A DNA stretch of 64,000 nt. It comes from Puniceicoccales bacterium. GTDB taxonomy: Bacteria > Verrucomicrobiota > Verrucomicrobiia > Opitutales > JAIRLM01. The notes under the pieces are model-generated. The model was not told the DNA's origin, did no database searches, and was given only the letters and a program-made list of their open reading frames with translations. Made by a program: the position numbers and the translations under genes. Location of the stretch: positions 23 through 64,022 of the forward strand of contig JAITCU010000026.1 in NCBI GenBank assembly GCA_031282835.1, read 5' to 3'. How positions within the stretch are numbered: position 1 is the first letter of the stretch; every line of letters begins with the position of its first letter. Of the stretch, positions 3,323 through 57,162 are shown in pieces.

Positions 3323-5998
3323 TTAACCCGTGCCCCCTTCGGACGCTGACACAGCGTCATCGCACAGGTAAGGCAGCAATATCGAAATCGCCACGGTTTC
3401 GGACATGACCAATTTTTCAATAAGCTCACGAAATTCGGCCTTGGGCAACGTGCCCTTTATCTCTTCCAAGTAAGCCCGACGCATATCATATGACCCCGGT
3501 TTGGAGAGCGCCGGCACGAAACAATCAATCAAATCGCCGCTGTTTCCGGTTTCCTCCACTAGCCACAGGAGAAAACGCAATGAGAAACCAATGTCGAAGT
3601 TAGATTGTATCGCCTGTTTTAGAGCGTCCTCCGGGAGCGCTTTTCCAGCAGCCAACAAATCATTCTCCCACGGCTCGCGTTGTACGGTGCTACTTTCCAA
3701 GAGAAGACCTATGTCATTTTGCTCCCAAGTCATATGCCCGCAAATATCCGCTAAGTCCGCTGGTGACATGCGGCCCTGTCTGCACATGTCGTCCATAAAT
3801 TTGCACAATGCATTCCGCAGCTCAGCGGATGGATATTTCGCTGCCACGGGCAACGCATCATCGCCATAGGCACCGTGTAACGCTCTAATTACCCTATCGT
3901 TATCAACACCAATAAACATGCGCACAAAATCAATTGCCTCATATCTCTTTGTCGCCGCCTCCATAACGCTATCGAAGGCCCCTGGCGATATGCTGTTCTG
4001 TACCCGGGATACGATCTCTCGCGCGACCACTATTCCGATGCCGTCATCCATACTCGCTAGCGTACCTAGTATTTGGGTTACCATATCGGCGGCATCAGGG
4101 GCTCTTTGGGTCAACACAGCGCATAAAAGCATCGCAATTCCAGGCGCATCACCAGGATAAAGCTTTACGGAAGTCGCTAAAATCACCTGCCACACGCCAC
4201 TAGCGTACATTTTGTATGTACTGGCGCGAGCGAGAAATTCACTAACCCCGTCAAATTCCCTCTGAGCTCCAAGTTCTTTAAGAATCGCCCGTGCCGCCCA
4301 TTCACTGGCATCATCCCCCATGGACAATAGCAATTCTACCTCCTCTCCCCCTTGTGCGCTACAAAGCAGTTGCCATATAAGCCTGTACCCCCATTCCGTT
4401 GGGTTCTCCATAATGGCTCGGATAACAGCACCGGACGCATCCAAATACCCTATCATTTGTACGCATGCGCCCATGTCCAATGCCCCGAAGTCATGGGTGT
4501 CAAAGACGCGCCCACTAAGGTTCCTCCCGTCGGGGGATAGTATTCGTTCAAATTCGCCCATATCCGTGACAGCGGTTCGGCCAGAGCCATGGCTAAACAA
4601 CTCACCCGTTGAATGTTGATGTACAGCTTTCGTTACTTGTTGGGCCAAACCTGCATCCATTGTTGAATGTTGATGTACAGCTTTCGTTACTTGTTGGGCC
4701 AAACCTGCATCCATTTTCGCCAGCAAATCGCCAAACTCCTCTCGGAGCTGTGGGTCCAGTTGACCCAGTACGGAAACAACAAATTCTATGGAGTCACGCT
4801 CCCTCACAATCTCGATTGCGAGTTCACGCGCGTGCTTCATTGCAATCGGAGAATTCTCCGTCAAAAACAGGAATACAATGTCCGTTGCCGTTGCCCCTTG
4901 CACCATCCTTTTTCCATATTCAGTGGATGTTAGCGCGTCCAAAAGTGCGACCCCATCGCATGACCGGGAAAGTACGCTCCTCATTGCCGCTTCTGGGGGG
5001 ACGGCCTTTTCCATAAAATCTACCAACTTTTTTGTTTCCGTTGTCGCCAAAAGAAGGTCCACAAGTTCTACAGCTAATTTCTTATTCTTCTGGATAAGAG
5101 GAAGAATCTGATCGTCACAGGCGCATTCGGGCGTTATCGCAAGTAATGCCAAAGCTCCTTCATTATCGCCAGAGATGATGCAATTGGCAATGGCATCTCT
5201 TATTGCTTGCTGAGGTGTGTCTTTTACCAGCTTAGACGCCTCCCCAAGTATATGTAAGATATCAGCCATATTCTCCTTGGAGTTTTCTAGTCTTTTCCTA
5301 ATAGCATCAATTTTAGACGCAAACTCCTCCGCAGGGGTTGGTTTCTTGGGGCCCGGATCGCCATCCTCAGTTGACTTCGGCTGCTCCGGATGATCGTCTT
5401 TTGCTGGGGGAATCCATCTCGGCGTGGGATCGTCTCGTGCCGGAGGAGTCTCTTCCTTCGGGGCAGCGCTTTCTACCACAGGACTCTCATTCTCAACTGT
5501 GGCCGTCTCCCCCGGCGCGGAAGCGCTTTTCACGGGCACGGGGTTTCCGATGGCAGTTTCCGTAGCACTACCCGTCGCGTCCTGACTCAACGGTGGCTGT
5601 ACCAGCGTAATATTTTTAGCATGAACCAGGATCTCATTCACACGCTTTTTCGCTTCCGCAACCAGTTTGACTTCTTTCGCGTCCCTCCGGGGAAGCCAAT
5701 AGTCGAGGGCAATGAGAGATGTGGTGAAAGTGAGACCCTTTGCCGGCGTCTGGGCAATGGATCGCTTGATGATCCACAAAATGAGTGTCCCGATCCCAGG
5801 GAGAACACACTGGAACACGTAAAACAGCACGCGGCCCAAACGGAAGGCGCGCGCATTGAAAGTGCATACGCACCTAACCCGTGACTTCCCACCGGCAAAG
5901 CTCACACCCCCGCTGGTTGGTGTGGGCTCAGAAAAAGATGTTAAAAACCCTGCTCCGAACCCGATTCCAGACGCGTCCCGAGAGGTCGATACACACAT
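3323..5998 (-). CDS. Orphan 891-aa protein: Ser/Gly-rich N-terminus, hydrophobic segment, Pro-rich linker, helical-repeat body
   Basis: Long ORF; VLFYVFQCVLPGIGTLILWII hydrophobic stretch; TTGACT 39 nt upstream of ATG. Confidence 0.85.
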   Translation of the reverse strand: MCVSTSRDASGIGFGAGFLTSFSEPTPTSGGVSFAGGKSRVRCVCTFNARAFRLGRVLFYVFQCVLPGIGTLILWIIKRSIAQTPAKGLTFTTSLIALDYWLPRRDAKEVKLVAEAKKRVNEILVHAKNITLVQPPLSQDATGSATETAIGNPVPVKSASAPGETATVENESPVVESAAPKEETPPARDDPTPRWIPPAKDDHPEQPKSTEDGDPGPKKPTPAEEFASKIDAIRKRLENSKENMADILHILGEASKLVKDTPQQAIRDAIANCIISGDNEGALALLAITPECACDDQILPLIQKNKKLAVELVDLLLATTETKKLVDFMEKAVPPEAAMRSVLSRSCDGVALLDALTSTEYGKRMVQGATATDIVFLFLTENSPIAMKHARELAIEIVRERDSIEFVVSVLGQLDPQLREEFGDLLAKMDAGLAQQVTKAVHQHSTMDAGLAQQVTKAVHQHSTGELFSHGSGRTAVTDMGEFERILSPDGRNLSGRVFDTHDFGALDMGACVQMIGYLDASGAVIRAIMENPTEWGYRLIWQLLCSAQGGEEVELLLSMGDDASEWAARAILKELGAQREFDGVSEFLARASTYKMYASGVWQVILATSVKLYPGDAPGIAMLLCAVLTQRAPDAADMVTQILGTLASMDDGIGIVVAREIVSRVQNSISPGAFDSVMEAATKRYEAIDFVRMFIGVDNDRVIRALHGAYGDDALPVAAKYPSAELRNALCKFMDDMCRQGRMSPADLADICGHMTWEQNDIGLLLESSTVQREPWENDLLAAGKALPEDALKQAIQSNFDIGFSLRFLLWLVEETGNSGDLIDCFVPALSKPGSYDMRRAYLEEIKGTLPKAEFRELIEKLVMSETVAISILLPYLCDDAVSASEGGTG
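4608..4715. repeat. Exact 2 x 54-bp in-frame tandem duplication
   Basis: Encodes MDAGLAQQVTKAVHQHST twice; the two units are identical. Confidence 0.95.
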
Positions 5999-6059
5999 AC
6001 GGCACTAAGTAGGTATAAAGATTGCCAACATAGTCAAGCCTGTTTGCTAAGCATTGCAC

Positions 6060-6590
6060 GCGCCTCGGGTGGCCATGCGGTTTTTTTGCCGTGCCCCATC
6101 GAAAATTTGACAAAAGTTAGCCAAAATCACAACTGGGTTGACAAATCTCTATTCCCCAGCAATATGGTCCCAGAATCAGGATTCTAAAAAAGGAGATTCA
6201 ATATGAAAAATACCACCGCATTCACGACAAATACTTTTGATGGTGATTGGGAACTGCAAATGTCCCCAGTCCTAGAACTGCCACCCGGCCTCAAGCCGGA
6301 ACCCCCATTTTTACGGGAATTCCCCGCGTTTTTAGGCCGGGCCAGCTCGCTGTCAGCGGCAAAAGCCATTTGGGAAATATCTTCTTAAATAAAAAACCAA
6401 GCCACCTCATCCGATTGGAGAACCTATGAAAATCAACAAAAAACTAAGGACGAATTATTGCCCTAACAAACAAGTCGAGGACAACAACAGTGTTGGACCC
6501 GCTAACTGTAACATCGCATCCCGAGAGCGTTCTGTGGATATTTCGACACCGTTCCCCGGGATTAATTATAAATTTCCCACAAGTATGACC
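6060..6590 (+). repeat. Family-A dispersed element, copy 1
   Basis: TTGACA 6138, CAATAT 6160, AGAATCAGGATTCT 6172-6185, AGGAG, ATG 6203; aligns with 18850-19265, 33480-34020 and the reverse complement of 35745-36270. Confidence 0.9.
6203..6388 (+). CDS. Small ORF1 of family-A element (61 aa)
   Basis: AGGAG SD and promoter upstream; paralogous to 19005-19232 and 33650-33829. Translation unproven. Confidence 0.5.
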   Translation: MKNTTAFTTNTFDGDWELQMSPVLELPPGLKPEPPFLREFPAFLGRASSLSAAKAIWEISS

Positions 6591-6798
6591 ACACTTGAAA
6601 AGATTTCCCCCGGGCGCAGTGGAAATGTTAGACGTGCCAACGTCTTTCGTAATTTTTCCGCGCCCCGGCACGGAGGAAAGAGGGGCAGATTGGCCAAAAT
6701 TTTTGGCAAGCATATCTTGACATGGGCAACTTTTGGGACGGATATGCGCCCATTGGTTTGGTTTTGAACGTTATGATTTGCCGTTGAATTGGTTTTTT

Positions 6799-7230
6799 AT
6801 GAGTACGACATTGGCAAAAAAGGAGCAGCACGGTTCCGGGCAGAAGCGGTGGGTTTTGCTCGATGCGGCGGGTATGAGTTTGGGCAGGTTAGCCGTGCGC
6901 GTTGCGAACATACTGCGCGGTAGGCACCGGCCAATTTATACGCCCCACGTGGATACGGGCGATTTTGTTATCGTCATCAACGCCGACAAGGTACGGCTAA
7001 CCGGTGCCAAAGACGCTAAGAAGGAGTATATGTTCTATACTGGGTTCATAGGCAATGAGCGGTATCGTAGCGCGACTGAAATGAAGGGCCGGGATTCGCG
7101 GTTCCTCGTCGAACACGCGGTCAAGGGCATGCTCCCCAAAAACCGCTTGGCCGATCAGATGATTCGCAAGTTGAAGGTTTACGGCGGCGCGGAGCACCGC
7201 AACGGGGCGCAGATGCCCGTCAAATTATAA
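6799..7230 (+). CDS. rplM: 50S ribosomal protein L13
   Basis: WVLLDA...LGRLA...YTPHVDTGDFVIVINA...GMLPKN; start MSTTLAK at 6799. Confidence 0.98.
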   Translation: MSTTLAKKEQHGSGQKRWVLLDAAGMSLGRLAVRVANILRGRHRPIYTPHVDTGDFVIVINADKVRLTGAKDAKKEYMFYTGFIGNERYRSATEMKGRDSRFLVEHAVKGMLPKNRLADQMIRKLKVYGGAEHRNGAQMPVKL

Positions 7231-17125: not shown

Positions 17126-17404
17126 AGCGAGCTTGTGTCTCGCCCGTAAGTGTGGGGATGTCAAGTCAGCAATTTCGTTTCCACTAAAGTTGCAAAAAGA
17201 ACGCCAACAACAGATTTGTTTGGGAAATGGCCGCACGTGCGGTTGGCAAGCTCGCCCGATTAATAGAGGTCTTGCAGAAGTCGCTTTTGGCCATTTTGCC
17301 CCGCATGAAATGCGGGTTTTAAGACAGTGTTTCCAACTTTTGAGGGATCTCCAATAGGTCCGACGCGGTGAAGTGCACTAAAATTCATGGGCCAATTTTG
17401 CGGT

Positions 17405-17519
17405 CAGGCCTGTGAAAAATTTGCCACAATCTCTCCGAGTGACCCTGCGATTTTTCGCCGTAGCTTTCTGGAAAATTCACAAAAATTAGCCAAAATCATA
17501 AACGGGCTGATAAATGTCT
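17405..17519 (+). repeat. Family-A element, left-end fragment
   Basis: acaaaaattagccaaaatcataaacgggctgataaatgtct nearly matches 18912-18952; similarity stops at a family-B element. Confidence 0.8.
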
Positions 17520-17644
17520 ACCTCGATGGAAAGTTTAGTCGGTGAGGATTTTTCCAGATTTCGTACCTGGGCCGCTGCCAAAGCGGTAATCGGGGTAGCC
17601 GTGGTGGCTATAAATTTGGGTTTTTAGACTTTTTCCATCGGGGT
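17520..17644. mobile_element. Family-B MITE-like element (125 bp) with imperfect terminal inverted repeats
   Basis: Left acctcgatggaaagt, right actttttccatcggggt; internal sequence recurs at 156-250, 55688-55784 and 63954-64000. Confidence 0.65.
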
Positions 17645-18748: not shown

Positions 18749-18849
18749 AGTGGCCAACCTTTGATTGATGCCCCTCTTTTGTGCTTGGAGGAGAATTTTC
18801 CGTCGAGCATCAAGCGTTACGCCTGTGGTTAGTGTAGTTGGGCTACGGA

Positions 18850-19265
18850 CAATTTGTCGCAGCCCACCTGGGCGGCCGCGCGAGGTATAGCTGCGACCCA
18901 TCACGAATTTAACAAAAATTAGCCAAAATCATAAACGGGTTGACAAATGTCTGTTCCACAGCAATATGGTCCCAGAATCAGGATTCTAAAAAGGAAAGTT
19001 CAATATGAAAAGTACAACCGCATTCACGACAGATATTTTTGATGACAATTGGGAACGGCAGACGTTCCTAGTCCCAGGATTGACACCTGGCTTCAAACTG
19101 GAACCCCTATTCCCATGGGAGTTTCCTGCGTCTTCAGGACGGGCCAGCCAGCTGCCAGCTGCGAAAGCCATCCCCAAAATATCACCAACACATAAAAAAC
19201 TGAGCCAGCTTATCCGATCGGAGAACCTATGAAAACTAACAAAAAACCAATGGCAAATTATCACT
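18850..19265 (+). repeat. Family-A dispersed element, copy 2
   Basis: TTGACA 18940, CAATAT 18962, AGAATCAGGATTCT 18974-18987, ATG 19005. Confidence 0.9.
19005..19232 (+). CDS. Small ORF1 of family-A element (75 aa, longest version)
   Basis: Colinear with copy 1; its TGA overlaps a second ATG (ATGA) that is preceded by GGAG. Confidence 0.5.
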   Translation: MKSTTAFTTDIFDDNWERQTFLVPGLTPGFKLEPLFPWEFPASSGRASQLPAAKAIPKISPTHKKLSQLIRSENL

Positions 19266-19343
19266 TCGGCCACCGGGCCGCGGGCAATCATGCGTGCGGC
19301 GTTGACAGCCGGACGATTGGCAACAGCATATGAACGGAAATTG

Positions 19344-26200: not shown

Positions 26201-26503
26201 GAAGCCACTATCGCTGCTTATCGACAGAACATCACAGGTGTGACCGGTAGATTTTGCGGGTTTTTGGATATGGGATTTGCGTCTGTTATTCTGCGTATCC
26301 CGGTTGTTGTAGTAACGGACAAGTATGCAATTGGTTTTTCAATTGTCGGAGAGGTCTTCACTGTCGACCTTCACAACTTGCCAGCTGGATCAATTGTTTT
26401 ATGGTACAACGGCCATGAGCACTTTGAGGTTTTCTCCAGAGAACCTCTCATCGACAAAATGTGGCTTGTTAAGGATAGCCCCGATGGAGAAAGTCCTTCA
26501 TAG
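23204..26503 (+). CDS. Orphan 1099-aa protein with internal repeats and a C-terminal OTU-like cysteine protease domain
   Basis: TRGDGNCALNAI (Cys codon 25646) and LWYNGHEHFE (His codon 26420); start may be 23282. Confidence 0.8.
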   Translation: MNLATKILHTCPLTICLRLMGSSTNCMLSTLRSNDKLPPLTPKMSVAALISDKWTIDVSPTDLSNTQGCVSVCMIGLLNNRSLWNFFNVIRCTVDSYPDGVYLIINPPLLDSLFAGIAALNCLTEGQCFPPTQRGGFGDSPLCHFHPTDNPSIFKYSREVNGDLCKKFSMPDCGDCNVMGKRWDIYRSSDVLFVRRIGSIDYEYAQKLVEAVRSGHPIRVFAVKSRTLGVEALECAFRRAYAYVNERANLLIPRNQEMRAGYYFLTQWLHRVLQSEHRMENSFQGSNEKCFIYCGLDVPVDIPPPPIGTKSDLGGQFATPDEKEFGLPTFDRTVGCESAGEWEFSYDGETLTVTAFGNIRWENVQRLALELQLVQGEIVIRIPANIEARILAAQFRAAYEYMLTESDLSVSRNEQMLIGFCLLANFFGRVADICVYEEVTQGDMVWHVFKGTFPEFNVPAASLVATSRSQRVNSALVDAFIEAFPESLEITNPILRDMQGFRERFRVFANKHGDILPHEVVSEILRCPLDSHELIEFFECCIFRELTPPLAPWSGIDIIVLYDKFRTVLGISDETMPITGSVHTRGWTASDFWHTVACCAVELDPRIVNIIAVSIFRQWWTGVILRNFLGSLRIFADQICTMSKAQIAKGVSFRSSAHCDILPVLIDTFLKIGLEIDEPEIAQSVAEILNSNLPPVDLHIAIARYTAEQLSKLAVPIVCKPSSEPAMEPKSFAPETTPELLLEAATTGSSPEPVTSEPSTDPADKFGSPESGAPVYSVELDSSPQRLSLLVPDSLRKYFTSQGWGIVHTRGDGNCALNAIAVSCALSLYTSRAFRRELWFIILGLRGLTRFSSISDSLAGAKVVPFPVIKISIKALRVNDTRNNEFVVRVLIRHCLEMIPEDWALFGADRQSLKALLSELQQIPALSTVFTELQQSEAFTNFFSSNPTHPNNPLKAREDFIRALFDELQFLAQFYLRDILSTAPLGDNVPDCFHLFLEREATIAAYRQNITGVTGRFCGFLDMGFASVILRIPVVVVTDKYAIGFSIVGEVFTVDLHNLPAGSIVLWYNGHEHFEVFSREPLIDKMWLVKDSPDGESPS

Positions 26504-26534
26504 GCTTGACTATGAGGGACTTTTTCCATCGGGG
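26479..26534. repeat. Family-B 56-bp palindrome
   Basis: ccccgatggagaaagtccttcatag-gcttga-ctatgagggactttttccatcgggg; 25-bp arms with two G.T mismatches. Confidence 0.9.
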
Positions 26535-32520: not shown

Positions 32521-33493
32521 TCCCATCGCCTTTACGGTTCCGTCCAGATGTGAGGGCTTGCGTTTGGACGTGGCCCTTGCCCGATGTTTCCCGGAAATGA
32601 GTCGCACACGAATCCAACGGGCCTGCGACGGTGGGTTCATCCGTTGCAGCGGCCTTCCCCTGGCGGCAAAAACGAAGGTAAAATCTGGCCAAGACCTTTC
32701 CATCCGGTGGGTGGAACGTGAGGAAATCTCCATCCAACCACGGGCAATGAGTTTGGAAATTCTCCACGAAGATGAGGCTATGTTGGCCGTCAACAAGCCA
32801 AGCGGGGAAGTGGTCCATCCGGCGCCCCATGTGAAAAACTCCTTCGTAGAGGTCATTCTCGCCCATACCAATGGCCAGTTGGCAAAAGCGGCGGGAGTTG
32901 GCCGGCCGGGGGTCGTCCATCGCTTGGACAAGGAAACCTCAGGAGTTCTTATTTTTGCCAAAACGGACTCGGCGTACTACCGCCTGAGTCAGATGTTCAT
33001 GAATCGTCTCGTGGAAAAATACTACGAGACATTGGTCTTCGGGGTGATGCGCGTGCGAAGCGGATCCATCCATGACCCCATTGGTCGCGACCCGTCCCAT
33101 CGCACGCGCATGGCCATTCGCCGCAACGGCCGGCCAGCCCATACGGATTGGGAGTGCCATCGGATTTTTTCCCAACCCGGCATCTCTCAGCTCGTCCTGC
33201 AGCTACATACGGGCCGTACCCACCAAATCCGCGTTCATCTGGCATCCATGGGCCATCCCATATTGGGCGACGAACTTTATGGATTTCGAGGGGATCGGCT
33301 CCCTGGCTGGCAAATTCCACGCATCCTCCTCCATGCCACGCGCATTAAACTGAAACATCCACTAACCGGCTTGGAACTATCCATCCAGGCGCCACTGCCA
33401 GCGGACATGGAAAATTTTATCGCGTCATTGGTTGCGCCGGGAAAAAATACCCGCAGGCCACCGGATTTCCAAAAAGCATGGGCAAGCTTGTGA
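32513..33493 (+). CDS. rluD: RluA-family pseudouridine synthase (RluD-like, with S4 domain)
   Basis: RLD...SR S4 motif, NKPSG.VVHP, GVVHRLDKETSG, TGRTHQIRVH, GD.LYG. Confidence 0.9.
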   Translation: MSDPIAFTVPSRCEGLRLDVALARCFPEMSRTRIQRACDGGFIRCSGLPLAAKTKVKSGQDLSIRWVEREEISIQPRAMSLEILHEDEAMLAVNKPSGEVVHPAPHVKNSFVEVILAHTNGQLAKAAGVGRPGVVHRLDKETSGVLIFAKTDSAYYRLSQMFMNRLVEKYYETLVFGVMRVRSGSIHDPIGRDPSHRTRMAIRRNGRPAHTDWECHRIFSQPGISQLVLQLHTGRTHQIRVHLASMGHPILGDELYGFRGDRLPGWQIPRILLHATRIKLKHPLTGLELSIQAPLPADMENFIASLVAPGKNTRRPPDFQKAWASL

Positions 33494-34020
33494 AGGATTC
33501 ACCACAATCTCCTCGAATGGCCCTGCGGTCCTCCGCCGCGATTTACCAAAAATCCGCCAAAAATCTGCCGAAATCACAAAGTGGTTGACAAATGGCCATT
33601 CCCCAGCAATATGGTCACAGAATCAAGATTCTAACATGAGAGGATTAATATGAAAAGCAACACCGATACCACCGCACACGCATCAAATATTTTTGACGGC
33701 GATTGGGAACTACAAATGCTCCCAATCCCAGGACTGACACCTGGCTTCACACTGGAACTCCTATTTTTATGGGAATTTCCTGCGTCTTTGGGACGAGCCA
33801 GCCCGCTGTCAGTTGCAAAAGCCATTTAAGGAATATCATCAATGAACAAAAAAACTGAGCTAACTTGGCCAATCGGAAAACCCACGAGGATAAAATGAAA
33901 AAACTAATGGCGGATTATCACTCCAGTAAAATAACTAGAGACAATGATAGCAGGGAGCCTTTTAATTATGGCATGCATTTAGATAATCTTGCTATGAATA
34001 TTTTTACATTATTCACCCGG
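33480..34020 (+). repeat. Family-A dispersed element, copy 3
   Basis: TTGACA 33585, AGAATCAAGATTCT 33619-33632, GAGG, ATG 33650. Confidence 0.9.
33650..33829 (+). CDS. Small ORF1 of family-A element (59 aa; absent from ORF track)
   Basis: MKSNTDTTAHASNIFDGDWELQMLPIPGLTPGFTLELLFLWEFPASLGRASPLSVAKAI*, translated by hand. Confidence 0.5.
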   Translation: MKSNTDTTAHASNIFDGDWELQMLPIPGLTPGFTLELLFLWEFPASLGRASPLSVAKAI

Positions 34021-34117
34021 GCATTGACGTTTGCTAGGCGAGCGCCCATGGGGTAAATTTTAAATTTATTTGACGTTTTGTGTAACTTATTTTTGATTAG
34101 ATATAAGGTGGTGAGCC

Positions 34118-35704: not shown

Positions 35705-35744
35705 AAAAATCGGAAGGCCCAGCGCTTTTGGGGTGTGTTTTATA

Positions 35745-36270
35745 GCTGAGCTTGTGAAAGGTTTATGATTAAGCATTGTAAACATTAATTTCGAAGTAAA
35801 TAATGCCGCGAAATACATATGGAAAGAGCCTCCGAATGCGATGTGGCGACCAGAATGCTTAATGCCATTGTTGCCAGCGGGCCATTGGGCGAAATAATGA
35901 TGCGCAACTAATTCCCTATTGATGTCCATTGGTCCTCCGATCTGGCAGGCTAGCTCAGTTTTTTTGTTCATTGGCAACATTCTTTAGATGGCTTGCGCAC
36001 CCTAAAAACGCAGGAAATCCTCCAAAAATGGAAGCTCCCGCTTGAAGCCAAGCGGTGGGCTTGTGCACGGGAATATTTGTCGCATGGGTGCGGCAATGGT
36101 GGTATTTTTTTCATATTAAACCTCACATGTTAGAATTCCGATTCTGGAACCATATTGCTGGGATATAGTCATTTGTCAACCACCTTGTGATTTCGATGGA
36201 TTTTTGGCGAATTTTTGGTAAATTGCGGCAAAAACCGCAGGGACACTCGAGGAGGTTACGGCAGATCTTT
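35745..36270 (-). repeat. Family-A dispersed element, copy 4 (inverted; ORF1 frameshifted with deletions)
   Basis: Minus strand: TTGACA 36179, palindrome 36132-36145, GAGG, ATG 36114 followed by an A7 run. Confidence 0.88.
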
Positions 36271-36411
36271 ATCGGAGGGCCATATGGCAAGTTTCCCGAT
36301 GGATTAAAGTCCATTTCCACCATATATAAGCTATAAATTGCATGGACATATCGCCCCGGAAATACATCCGTGCATTCCCGGTCGGATCACATCTAATCGT
36401 CACACCAAATG

Positions 36412-39400
36412 CTAAGCTACCGGTTCGGGTGCACTAGATGCGGATGTGCCAAGCATAGACTCGATGGCTTCATGCGTTTTTTCAACCACAGCAATATATG
36501 TATCAAGGGAGCCACCTGCCGCTTTGCGTCCATCTTCATAGTACGAGGCAAGAGCGCCAACGTCCAGTTTAAGGGGTAGTACCGCGACAGCACCCGGCTG
36601 TGCATCCGGCTTGAGTACACATGAATCATTCGGTTGGGCAGTGCTATCAACGTTTCCGCCGGGATTCAGTGGAAGAGCGGGGTCGGGGTCGGGGTCGGGG
36701 ATACGCGCAGTGGCTTGTTGGCAAAGTGCAAGTACGGTAGCACGGTCTGGATTCTTCAGGTTAGCGATCTGCATCTTTATGTGCTCCATTTGGGCCTCGA
36801 ACCTAAATGGGAATTTCAAAAGTTTATCGAATTCCGAATCTTCGCTCCGAAATATTAACGGAAATCCGGCCAAAAGATACACAAACACCCATGCGAGAAT
36901 TGCCTTTACCTTTCTCGCAGTTGTCAACGATGCCTTCACTCGGGCAAATGATTCATCATATCCCCTAATCTCCTCCAAAAAAGACGCATACCTCTGGTCG
37001 AAAAGTTGTTTGATAACCACATCCACCCATTGTTTGATCTGGGCTAATTGGGCGGGTGAACATTTTTGTTGGACGCTCGCATTAGCCTGCAGCAGGGCGT
37101 TGCCTACGGCTTCTTGAAGAGTTCCCGCAGAACAATTTAGCATGCGGTCCTTGCTCAAATTGTCTCGAAATATAGCGGCCATAGTTCTCTGAAACATATC
37201 CTGGGCACACTGCCGATCAGATGGACTCAAATTTATATCATCCGTTTCCCAAAAGCCGAATAAACGTACCGCCTCTGACACAGTATCAGATATCTGCTTA
37301 CAGAACACCGCTAGAGTAGCTTCCACTCGCCCGTCCGCTGCCGTTTGGAGGGCTTCAAGTGGGCTCGTACCCTCAAAATCCTGTTTGCTGAATGCCAAAA
37401 ACGCCACCGCGGCTTTCTCTATACATTCACCGAGTCCAGGATGATATTCTTTATCAGTAATGCAGCAAATCATATCATACATAATGAGCCGTTCCGGAGA
37501 TAATCCAGCCAGGTCAATATGGCTTAGGAACTCCATGCATATTTGCACAAAAAGATCGACCGGCAGATCATTTAATACATTCCCTGTCATTTGTTGAACG
37601 ACTTCTTCCGTCAGCCCATCCCTTCGTTGTGATAAAAAGAGGGCAACAGCAGAAGAGTTCCACGGCTGCTCCAAAGTCTTAGGTACTAACTGTGACAATG
37701 GGAACATCGAGGCCGACACTGTTCCTTTACGACTCCCAGTTCCCCCATTCTTTGTAAAAAGCTTGGCAATGGCAGCTTTCTCGTCCTCGTCCAACGGTAG
37801 GAGGCCCGCTTGCCTTCTTCGGTCGCTCTCTGTTTCGCATAAAAGCACGAAAGCTGTTACTGTGGGACCCGTAAATTCGTTTGGATGAGCCGGATCCATA
37901 AATCTCCGAAGCCATTCCACTGGTATATCACTATATCTCCCAAGCAACAACAAAGCTTCATAAATTTCTTCCCCATGTTCTGGTAAGGCATCTTTATTCC
38001 CGACCAATACGCCTCCATTTGGCGTAAAAAGCACCGGCTTTCCGGGCGCCCAAAGATTCGCATTTGCAATGTATCGGTTCGCCTCGAAACCATCGACAAT
38101 GAAGGTTTTGCCATGCTGCGGATCTACCATGATGAAGAACTCGCCACCCAACTCGTGAAATGGCCATCCAATCTGCGAATCCTCAGTCAGGCAGGCCAAA
38201 TTCTTAGTTAGGTACAGTCTTGAAAAAAGCGTACCAGGATTTGGATACTTCTCATCTTGGGTCCGCCATCCGCGGAACATGCTCGCGTCGACTTTAATCG
38301 CATATTCAGACGGAACTCCTTCCATCAGGTTCAACTCATCTTTTACGCGCGGGTTACTTGACGGAAAGGTGGTGGTCGTCGTAGTCAAAGTGCATTGAAC
38401 ATTCAACGAGCATTCTTGCTGGTTTTCAAGTTCGAACTGAACAGTTTTTTGTACAATTGTTTCCACCTGCTGCTCGAGCGTTGAACCGCCACTTCCGCCC
38501 ATGGCCGAGGAACGGTACATGAAACCCTTAAGACGCTTCCCTATATCTTCTAAGAATAAAGGCAATTCGCCTTTGGGCGCGTTTAAGGCAGTAAACGCCC
38601 CTCTTATTTTTGCGAAAGCGGGACAGTTTTGGTATTTGTCGAGAACATCTAAAAATTTAGATGTATACATCCTCGCTTGCCTCTGAATAATTTCGACTCC
38701 AGGTACCATCGATTGGCGGCGCGCACAGGAGGAAATTACATCAAGATCCACATTTTTCACAAAAAAATCACAAAATGCGCTCAGAACAAGTTTCGCATCC
38801 GAAAAGCTAAGATTGGCAATTGCATCTACAAGGATTGATTTAAACATGTAGTGCAGTTCGTTAAGGGCTGCTTGGAGTATCAAGGTTTTATTATTTTCTC
38901 CTTCATTTTGCGCTAGTAATGCAAGAAGTTGAACCAGTTGCTCTTGCGTCGGAAGATCTTTTAGCCCCTCAGTCCGTGGGCATTCTGCAACTGCTATACA
39001 TATTTGCTGCCCAGTAAAATACTGGCGAAGACGCATTATCGCCTGCGCCCACTCTTCTGGTGTGTTTGTATTTGGATTTGCGGTCATAATCCCATAAGCA
39101 TTGGCCGCAAATTGAGCATCCGTTCCTGTCGCAAGTCGCTCGGAAAAAAATGCCGCACACTCGTCGGGATTGAGGCCCGCCTTTCGTAAATCAGCGGACG
39201 TAACGCCAGTGAGATGTTTGTTGTTCTTCCCGTCACCGCGGATGTCATAGGCAATGAAGTTCCCACCCGAATCTTCGCAGACAATCCACTCAACACCAGC
39301 ATTATTGTCAATTAACTCCTGCCCAAATTGGACCAAAATATCATGGAGACTTTTTACTTTAAATAGCCCACCTCTATCCACGAGAAGACGAACCTGGGAA

Positions 39401-52884: not shown

Positions 52885-52922
52885 CCCCGATGGAAAAAGT
52901 ATGCGAGTTGCAAAACTCGCAT
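52885..52922 (-). terminator. Probable valS terminator abutting a family-B half-site
   Basis: Hairpin atgcgagtt/aactcgcat (52901-52922) followed on the minus strand by ACTTTTTCCATCGGGG. Confidence 0.5.
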
Positions 52923-56123: not shown

Positions 56124-56179
56124 CCCCGACGGAAAAAGTCCCTCACAGGCTTAACTGTGGAGGATTTTTTCCATCGGGG
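56124..56179. repeat. Family-B 56-bp palindrome, second copy
   Basis: ccccgacggaaaaagtccctcacag-gcttaa-ctgtggaggattttttccatcgggg. Confidence 0.88.
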
Positions 56180-57077: not shown

Positions 57078-57162
57078 GCTCGGGTGGTGAAATTGGCAGA
57101 CACGCTGTCTTCAGGCGGCAGTGCCGTGAGGCGTAAGGGTTCGAATCCCTTCTCGAGCACCA
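57078..57162 (+). tRNA. tRNA-Leu (anticodon CAG)
   Basis: GCTCGGG/CTCGAGC acceptor stem, CTGTC-TTCAGGC-GGCAG anticodon arm, long variable arm, TTCGAAT, encoded CCA; TTGACA at 57040. Confidence 0.97.

Follow-up and report, generated by a model that had tools for sequence, protein, structure and literature searches.

The DNA analysed here is a 64,000-nucleotide (nt) stretch, hereafter the window, from a Puniceicoccales bacterium (contig JAITCU010000026.1 of assembly GCA_031282835.1, positions 23 to 64,022 of the forward strand). It carries a dispersed repeat, designated family A, in which a putative promoter, a short dyad and a small open reading frame (ORF1) follow one another. The original prediction had placed four copies and an additional fragment in the window, and all of these were confirmed. 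The plus strand carries the motif CAGAATCNNRATTCTAA at 6171, 18973 and 33618, and the minus strand carries it at 36130-36146 (4 occurrences versus 0.26 expected; none of 100 shuffles reached 4). The same four loci were matched by a sequence profile, and a further profile match at 17398-17524 corresponded to the fragment. When the four window loci were aligned, similarity extended over ~500 nt and the flanks were unrelated. The predicted ATGA overlap between ORF1 and a second frame (ORF2) of copy 2 was readable in this alignment, and the frameshift in ORF1 of copy 4 was also confirmed, with 48 amino acids (aa) remaining. The profile match of copy 1 covers 6020-6753, of which the last ~150 nt are the copy's own flank. 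The parts of copy 1 and the positions of the other copies are as follows.

6029..6593, plus strand: copy 1, whole element including both inverted repeats, 565 nt, with its ends located
6029..6054, plus strand: left inverted repeat of copy 1, decayed (8/26 mismatches to the consensus)
6100..6137, plus strand: A-tract-rich stretch 5' of the -35 hexamer with repeated GCCAAAA-type units, seen in the sequence and in the consensus; possibly an UP-like element
6138..6143, plus strand: -35 hexamer TTGACA, invariant in 64/64 copies
6160..6165, plus strand: -10-like hexamer CAATAT (family pattern CANNAT), separated from the -35 hexamer by a 16-nt spacer
6172..6185, plus strand: dyad AGAATC-AG-GATTCT, which would form a 5' stem-loop in the transcript
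6191..6195, plus strand: Shine-Dalgarno (SD) sequence AGGAG, read from the sequence, with purine-rich variants in other copies
6203..6388, plus strand: ORF1, 61 aa, beginning ATGAAA, with a coding signature
6426..6767, plus strand: ORF2, 113 aa in copy 1, extending beyond the right repeat
6568..6593, plus strand: right inverted repeat of copy 1, decayed (9/26 mismatches)
17398..17524, plus strand: truncated fragment spanning profile positions 10-136; its -35 hexamer is decayed (CTGATA)
18828..19291, plus strand: copy 2, profile positions 6-469; ORF1 at 19005-19232, with an ATGA overlap with ORF2
33476..34039, plus strand: copy 3; ORF1 starts at 33650
35741..36291, minus strand: copy 4; ORF1 starts at 36114 and is frameshifted, 48 aa

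Family A copies were then collected over the whole host assembly (1.04 Mb, 48 contigs, 88.8% complete) by an iterated nhmmer profile. This yielded 87 matches with a total length of 36,372 nt, or 3.5% of the assembly, in intergenic positions spread over at least 40 contig locations. The scale given in the original prediction was thus correct for the window but an underestimate for the genome. The promoter and ORF1 were both spanned by 64 of the 87 matches, and the other 23 were fragments. The copies were ~75% identical. The glycogen phosphorylase gene of the window shares 91% identity with its counterpart in a metagenome-assembled genome titled Puniceicoccales bacterium. The sole public run containing the region was a termite-gut metagenome DNA run, which may be its source; no RNA run was among the public runs containing it.

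The consensus of family A ends in inverted repeats that agree at 23 of 26 positions, and none of 2000 shuffles was as good. In the three copies for which both ends could be placed, each 26-nt repeat had 7-10 mismatches. Upstream of rplM, the window has ~550-600 nt that the congeners G002 and G001 lack, and all three genomes keep the TTGACA promoter of rplM itself, which lies downstream of where copy 1 is inserted. The inverted ends and this insertion indicate that family A is a dispersed, once-mobile unit, as had been proposed. [quoted passage not shown] It also has their other marks, namely inverted repeats, many dispersed copies and absence from the orthologous site of relatives. The suggestion that the repeat is the left end of an extinct insertion sequence (IS) was partly supported, in that its ends are related to IS5/Harbinger-type MITE termini, but both ends are present and no transposase remnant lies inside.

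The expression module was the most uniform part of the element. TTGACA was unchanged in all 64 copies, with 0 of 384 bases departing from the consensus, and the spacer between TTGACA and CANNAT was exactly 16 nt in every one of them. The -10-like hexamer read CAATAT in 31 of the 64 copies, and the ATGAAA start agreed with the consensus at 98%. In contrast, non-consensus bases amounted to 18.5% in ORF1, ~30% in the upstream DNA and 31% in the spacer beside the -35 hexamer. These values bear out the earlier claim that the control module is better conserved than the cargo. Invariant and variable positions alternated base by base in the alignment. The distance of 65 nt from TTGACA to ATG, which is shared by the four window copies, was found in only 26 of the 64 copies genome-wide (range 63-75). 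The native rplM promoter, which is conserved in three genomes, resembles this arrangement in layout. Judged by its conservation, the TTGACA/CANNAT pair would be the promoter of family A.

ORF1 was open in most copies, with lengths of 46-195 aa and a mode of 59-70 aa. Its coding status was evaluated by simulations in which each copy's own substitutions were re-placed. The core of the 39 indel-free copies contained 0 stops compared with 20.8±4.3 expected, and none of 500 simulations was as low. Across the whole of ORF1, synonymous and nonsynonymous changes were neutral (183:453 versus 189:462 expected), and variability had no three-base periodicity (0.285, 0.270 and 0.267 at the codon positions). 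The C-terminal motif RASPLPAAK had 86 synonymous changes in 54 copies compared with 53.5±6.5 expected, a value reached in none of 1000 simulations, which indicates purifying selection on its amino acids. The 36 codons before the motif showed the opposite in 47 copies: 142 synonymous changes were counted compared with 179.9±11.9 expected (1 of 1000 simulations as low), indicating excess replacement, and again there were no stops (25 expected). Codon by codon, A322 was constrained (7 synonymous to 1 replacement) and V250 had replacements only (0:25). When the six frames were compared in the motif, the sense frame had the strongest synonymous excess (z=+5.0); one antisense frame, whose wobble positions are common with those of the sense frame, had a weaker signal (z=+2.5).

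Judged from these substitution patterns, ORF1 is a truly coding, real gene. The proposal of a diversifying small-peptide family fits the codon data, in which the motif is constrained and the body is rich in replacements. The product is probably a largely disordered small protein. A conserved C-terminal motif combined with a variable body may also resemble precursor families of ribosomally synthesized and post-translationally modified peptides (RiPPs), which we mention as a lead only. Consistent with the earlier remark that the repeat was not recognised as a described family, there was no Rfam match and no Pfam match, the latter for 20 members of ORF1 and 9 of ORF2, and ESM Atlas returned no usable neighbours for ORF1. 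Substitutions in the ORF1 core comprised 665 transitions versus 107 transversions, which may reflect the mutation spectrum of the reduced genome. ORF2 was poorly kept and reached at least 34 aa from the family start in only 22 of 64 copies.

Singleton counts were powerless for detecting selection after insertion (~3 expected in the -35 hexamer), and branch lengths of a tree were used instead. The maximum-likelihood tree of the 64 copies was star-like. Its terminal branches summed to 12.31 substitutions per site, with a mean of 0.19, and its internal branches to 2.46; terminal branches therefore make up 83% of the tree length (12.3 of 14.8). Over this terminal length, ~74 changes are predicted for the six -35 sites, and 0 were seen in the 384 site-copies. 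Changes on terminal branches are not removable by selection for transposition, so each copy appears to be under purifying selection at its own locus. The alternation of invariant and variable positions at single-base resolution speaks against gene conversion. These patterns suggest that the inverted ends drifted while the promoter, hairpin, start codon and open frame were kept at nearly every locus.

A purely selfish and decaying MITE, in which conservation would reflect recent ancestry or the needs of transposition and no function at the level of the host, would share several features with family A. Inverted ends, high copy number and intergenic placement are expected of it, and the decay of ORF2 and of the ends, together with the 23 fragments among 87 matches, is in line with it. 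The tree, however, places most of its length on terminal branches, and despite this length the -35 hexamer was unchanged and ORF1 was free of stops (20.8 expected). Single-base alternation also argues against gene conversion as the source of uniformity. We consider this explanation very improbable.

One reading offered in the original prediction was a promoter unit controlled by a repressor. Four stem pairs were compared in the 64 copies, and 231 of 256 pairs were Watson-Crick, 24 were of G·U type, none was of A·C type and 1 was of another type. Compensatory changes replaced T-A by C-G, and A-T by T-A or G-C. Several copies had a 4-nt central insertion that made the stem longer, with a TCGA loop, and altered the spacing of the half-sites. 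The asymmetry of 24 to 0 does not result from mutation bias, because A>G and T>C were equally frequent among family A substitutions and G>A exceeded C>T. A symmetric operator should not show single-sided departures of the G·U type without those of the A·C type, whereas a hairpin in plus-strand RNA (or single-stranded DNA) should. In its pairing covariation, the dyad thus acts like a hairpin of the plus-strand RNA.

It could still be argued that family A is a repressor-controlled mobile promoter, with a dimeric DNA-binding protein using the 14-bp dyad as operator and so switching every copy at once. The dyad is conserved and overlaps the expected start site, positions G154, A155 and T164 are invariant, a palindromic operator would likewise accommodate the symmetric double changes, and the RNA hairpin is thermodynamically weak. 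However, a symmetric dimer site should treat its two halves alike, which the single-sided changes do not, and the 4-nt insertions at the centre would change the half-site spacing. We regard such an operator as quite improbable, and the repressor part of the earlier claim was not upheld. The alternative of a small RNA family fared no better, since there was no conserved structure beyond the hairpin and the coding signal was frame-specific. RNAalifold, applied to the transcript and its upstream part, gave only two small unsupported helices besides the 4-bp hairpin, and the sole Rfam match in the whole 64-kb window was a tRNA at 57078-57159. A leader-peptide attenuator was considered and rejected: there is no plus-strand terminator-like site in 5950-6850, no alternative conserved helices were found, and the gene ahead is convergent for 24 of 62 copies.

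The surroundings of 62 copies were informative about orientation. A co-oriented downstream gene, often less than 100 nt away, was faced by 38 copies, and the 3' end of a convergent gene by the other 24. Copies located between co-directional genes were co-oriented with them in 25 cases and anti-oriented in 7 (p=0.002), a result stable to the ORF-length threshold. As a neutral insert at such a place should take both orientations equally often, this bias indicates that orientation matters, as expected if the promoter fires. Truncated copies were also compared. TTGACA, hairpin, SD sequence and ATG were kept in 11 of 13, followed by ORFs of 14-119 aa with unrelated sequence; in none of the truncated copies was the module's ATG seen joined to a host gene.

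These observations would also fit a portable promoter, in which promoter, leader and start codon are selected as an entry point of transcription and translation for neighbouring DNA and the peptide is irrelevant. The sole reason for an open ORF1 would then be ribosome coverage of the RNA, which would keep transcription from terminating prematurely (Rho-type). The expression module left intact in truncated copies, the 38 copies that point at a co-oriented gene, the 25:7 bias, and the neutral ratio of whole ORF1 with its absence of stops are all in favour of this explanation. Promoter-bearing MITEs are moreover known, such as Correia, MITEAba12, BrickBuilt, QMITE1 and SonMITE_1, according to a survey (PMC10969869). 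Purifying selection on the amino acids of RASPLPAAK, strongest in the sense frame, is in contrast unexpected for a spacer ORF. Furthermore, 24 of the 62 copies are directed towards a convergent gene's 3' end, and downstream of copy 1 rplM still has a conserved promoter of its own. A portable promoter is therefore a serious but unlikely explanation in our estimate.

Several other features were observed around the window copies. The native rplM-rpsI promoter region (~6690-6760), with an A/T tract and TTGACA at 6717-6722, lies directly 3' of copy 1. An 891-aa ORF (3323-5998, minus strand) adjoins copy 1 on the other side and contains an exact internal tandem duplication of 18 residues (MDAGLAQQVTKAVHQHST, twice). 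Crude ORF calling gave very large ORFs for a 1-Mb genome, one of 4113 aa adjoining copy 4 (~36400-48750, minus strand) and others of 3706, 1620, 1539 and 1393 aa on other contigs.

The same genome contains a younger MITE family, designated family T, of ~260-325 nt with copies 85-98% identical. Its 17-nt terminus motif occurs 95 times with at most 3 mismatches. A 3-bp target duplication of TWA type is the criterion for the IS5/Harbinger (DDE_Tnp_4) group, and the 5' flanks of the 95 termini were TTA in 20, TAA in 12, CTA in 10 and ATA in 8. The left end of family A agreed with the right end of family T at 19 of 23 positions, and none of 2000 shuffles was as good. Nine DDE_Tnp_4 fragments were detected in the genome, all below the curated cut-off and several within 200 nt of contig ends, and a remnant of HTH_Tnp_4 (38.9 bits) was found in a 132-aa ORF (C41:2700-3098) that is cut by a palindromic unit. 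The fragments suggest an unassembled or decayed IS of the IS5/Harbinger type, and a transposase of this type (DDE_Tnp_4) probably mobilised family A.

Family T was also seen in other arrangements. Contigs end inside it with 119-nt overlaps (for example C10, C11, C12, C13 and C47). Its terminus motif is present in the window at 17627-17643 (minus strand), 52885-52901 and 63955-63971 (both plus strand). Near-perfect palindromes of ~55 nt, at 26479-26534 and 56124-56179 of the window, consist of two T termini back to back with TCAAGC at the centre; more such palindromes are located at C24:104311-104366, C18:18493-18548 and C41:3040-3095. Near-identical composites at C5:2352-2938, C5:5750-6431 and C4:120-596 have the T right end followed by the A core, with the left repeat of family A replaced. 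These three look like recent duplicates of one junction.

We next consider the distribution of family A outside the host genome. A DNA search of 40 relatives, including three congeners, gave no family A match. The congeners are only 77-83% identical to the host in coding DNA, and the absence of family A there thus needs no very recent origin. An ORF1 profile run on 13 other genomes of the taxonomic family gave one match in G001 (E=0.006), which was rejected as it lies inside an ordinary coding region without promoter or dyad. The same profile found nothing in a sample of 400 further genomes of the order, and a back-translated scan of species-representative genomes returned 49 stretches of which none was confirmed. 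With a 19-base pattern from promoter to ATG, none of 204 loci among the matches listed from genome and metagenome collections fitted the profile, which is a weak negative. A stricter pattern of promoter and hairpin had six single matches on genome contigs of unrelated taxa (~4 expected by our own estimate), and none of the six fitted the profile.

Protein searches extended the family. A word-indexed search gave 40 matches, 38 from the host genome and 2 external, and an exhaustive profile search gave 37, comprising 25 from the host genome, 9 external small proteins and 3 giant proteins. The nine small proteins were 38-52% identical to host copies and are annotated only as hypothetical on eight JGI/IMG metagenome contigs of 1.6-22 kb. 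These results indicate that the family is present in at least one other, unsampled lineage. The giant repeat proteins (P0055-P0057) were rejected, with 1-7 bits per stretch and a short LTP..LE.PF likeness summed over tandem repeats. Titles and abstracts on termite-gut Puniceicoccales and Verrucomicrobia contained no description of the family A repeat.

Taken together, the most probable explanation, which we hold with somewhat better than even confidence, is that family A is an old element resembling a MITE or a mobile cassette, which spread in one burst and whose micro-genes were then maintained at nearly every locus. An old non-autonomous element of ~565 nt with inverted repeats would have spread in a reduced termite-gut lineage of Puniceicoccales. 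It would have been mobilised in trans, probably by a transposase of the IS5/Harbinger type (DDE_Tnp_4) that now survives only as fragments. The cargo would consist, in order, of the A-tract region, the promoter (TTGACA, 16 nt, CANNAT), a short stem-loop, the SD sequence with ATGAAA, and ORF1 of ~60 aa. The stem-loop, which would lie close to or right at the transcript's 5' end, may stabilise the messenger RNA (mRNA). In the predicted peptide, the C-terminal RASPLPAAK would be conserved and the remainder fast-changing. After the burst, the ends would have drifted freely, while selection kept the promoter, hairpin, start codon and open frame, and the copies would be maintained micro-genes, not decaying junk. 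A strong promoter firing outward would limit the direction of copies relative to their neighbours. From sequence patterns we infer that the promoter fires, that the transcript starts at the hairpin and is stabilised by it, that the transposase was of the type named, and that the peptide has a role.

A number of observations weigh against the maintained micro-gene explanation. Only 3 of the 6 bases of the -10-like hexamer agree with TATAAT, and a simple sigma-70 scan misses the promoter for this reason. With -1.3 to -4 kcal/mol the hairpin is weak, and the four window copies were no better than shuffles. The synonymous/nonsynonymous tests assumed a star around the consensus in place of a tree-based codon model. 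One antisense frame, which has its wobble positions in common with the sense frame, was poor in stops (3 versus 10.3 expected). Structure models of ORF1 were of low confidence, with a predicted local distance difference test score (pLDDT) of 0.43 in ESM Atlas and, in AlphaFold2 with 20 paralogs, a pLDDT of 55.8 and a predicted template modelling score (pTM) of 0.22. As 11 to 12 truncated copies keep the expression module without the ORF1 body, the peptide may not be the main selected feature. On the side of mobility, the inverted ends were located as had been suggested, but target-site duplications were not recognisable beside the decayed ends. No intact transposase and no IS with matching ends was found in the assembly, all 9 DDE_Tnp_4 matches being sub-threshold. 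The T-like segment points inward in family A, an odd geometry, so that family A may not simply be a MITE belonging to the IS of family T.

Family A can be compared with several known systems. Mobile insertion cassettes carry IS-derived inverted repeats around passenger genes and no transposase; the described examples are low-copy and carry ordinary enzymes. Family A is similar in that IS-type inverted repeats enclose a passenger coding sequence, and differs in that the passenger is a self-promoted micro-gene, diversified and present in at least 65 copies. Bacterial mRNAs, such as that with the ompA leader, can have stabilising stem-loops at their 5' terminus, with a short hairpin upstream of the SD sequence. 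The family A stem has 4-6 AU-rich pairs and is weak in comparison, and a stabilising role would follow from covariation alone.

Bacterial MITEs with sigma-70-like promoters that can affect neighbouring genes, and sometimes with orphan ORFs, are known from the survey cited above (PMC10969869). Correia of Neisseria, MITEAba12, BrickBuilt, QMITE1 and SonMITE_1 are, as listed there, like family A in being short and non-autonomous, with inverted ends, many intergenic copies and internal promoters (PMC10969869). Family A is larger (~565 nt), and its promoter would drive an internal translated gene and not read out of an end; its ends have decayed, and its promoter and ORF appear to be under purifying selection after insertion. 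In the Rfam, Pfam and genome searches it resembled no sequence from beyond its own lineage. Putative mobile promoters are similar promoter regions located before unrelated genes in one genome (Nijveen, Matus-Garcia and van Passel 2012; PMC3575422). They were defined by at least 80% identity over at least 50 nt, occur mostly in pairs and have no known vehicle (PMC3575422). In family A, by contrast, a vehicle with inverted ends and a translated cargo are visible, identity is ~75%, and 38 of 62 copies face a co-oriented gene. Rickettsia palindromic elements, BOX, ERIC and QMITE1 are repeats encoding conserved peptides, given as of unknown function in the same survey (PMC10969869). Insertion of the Rickettsia elements is in frame within host genes, and they lack a promoter, whereas family A is intergenic and would be self-expressed. 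Family A is thus a new family among the promoter- and ORF-bearing MITEs, with an unusual history: its parts for mobility have decayed, and its diversifying micro-gene was apparently retained by the host.

MITEs with promoters or orphan ORFs are usually seen as selfish DNA with incidental effects. In family A, decay has instead reached the parts for mobility and spared those for expression, and this maintenance has held at some 64 loci over ~0.19 substitutions per site in a genome otherwise shrinking to 1 Mb. A more tentative idea, to which we give less than an even chance, is that a transposon served as the vehicle of a gene family: the burst would have seeded at least 65 independently promoted micro-genes over a symbiont-type genome of 1 Mb, of which the host kept nearly all expressed while their bodies diversified around the fixed C-terminal motif. 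Such a family would be a bacterial counterpart of fast-diversifying effector or surface-peptide families, possibly for interaction with the termite-gut host or its protists. Few rules for promoters and leaders are known in Verrucomicrobiota, and the 64 natural variants of both could help to define them. Provided that the peptides are made, family A would clearly exemplify in nature how a transposon can spread and multiply a functional micro-gene, and would constitute a large unannotated family of small proteins that occupies 3.5% of a reduced genome.

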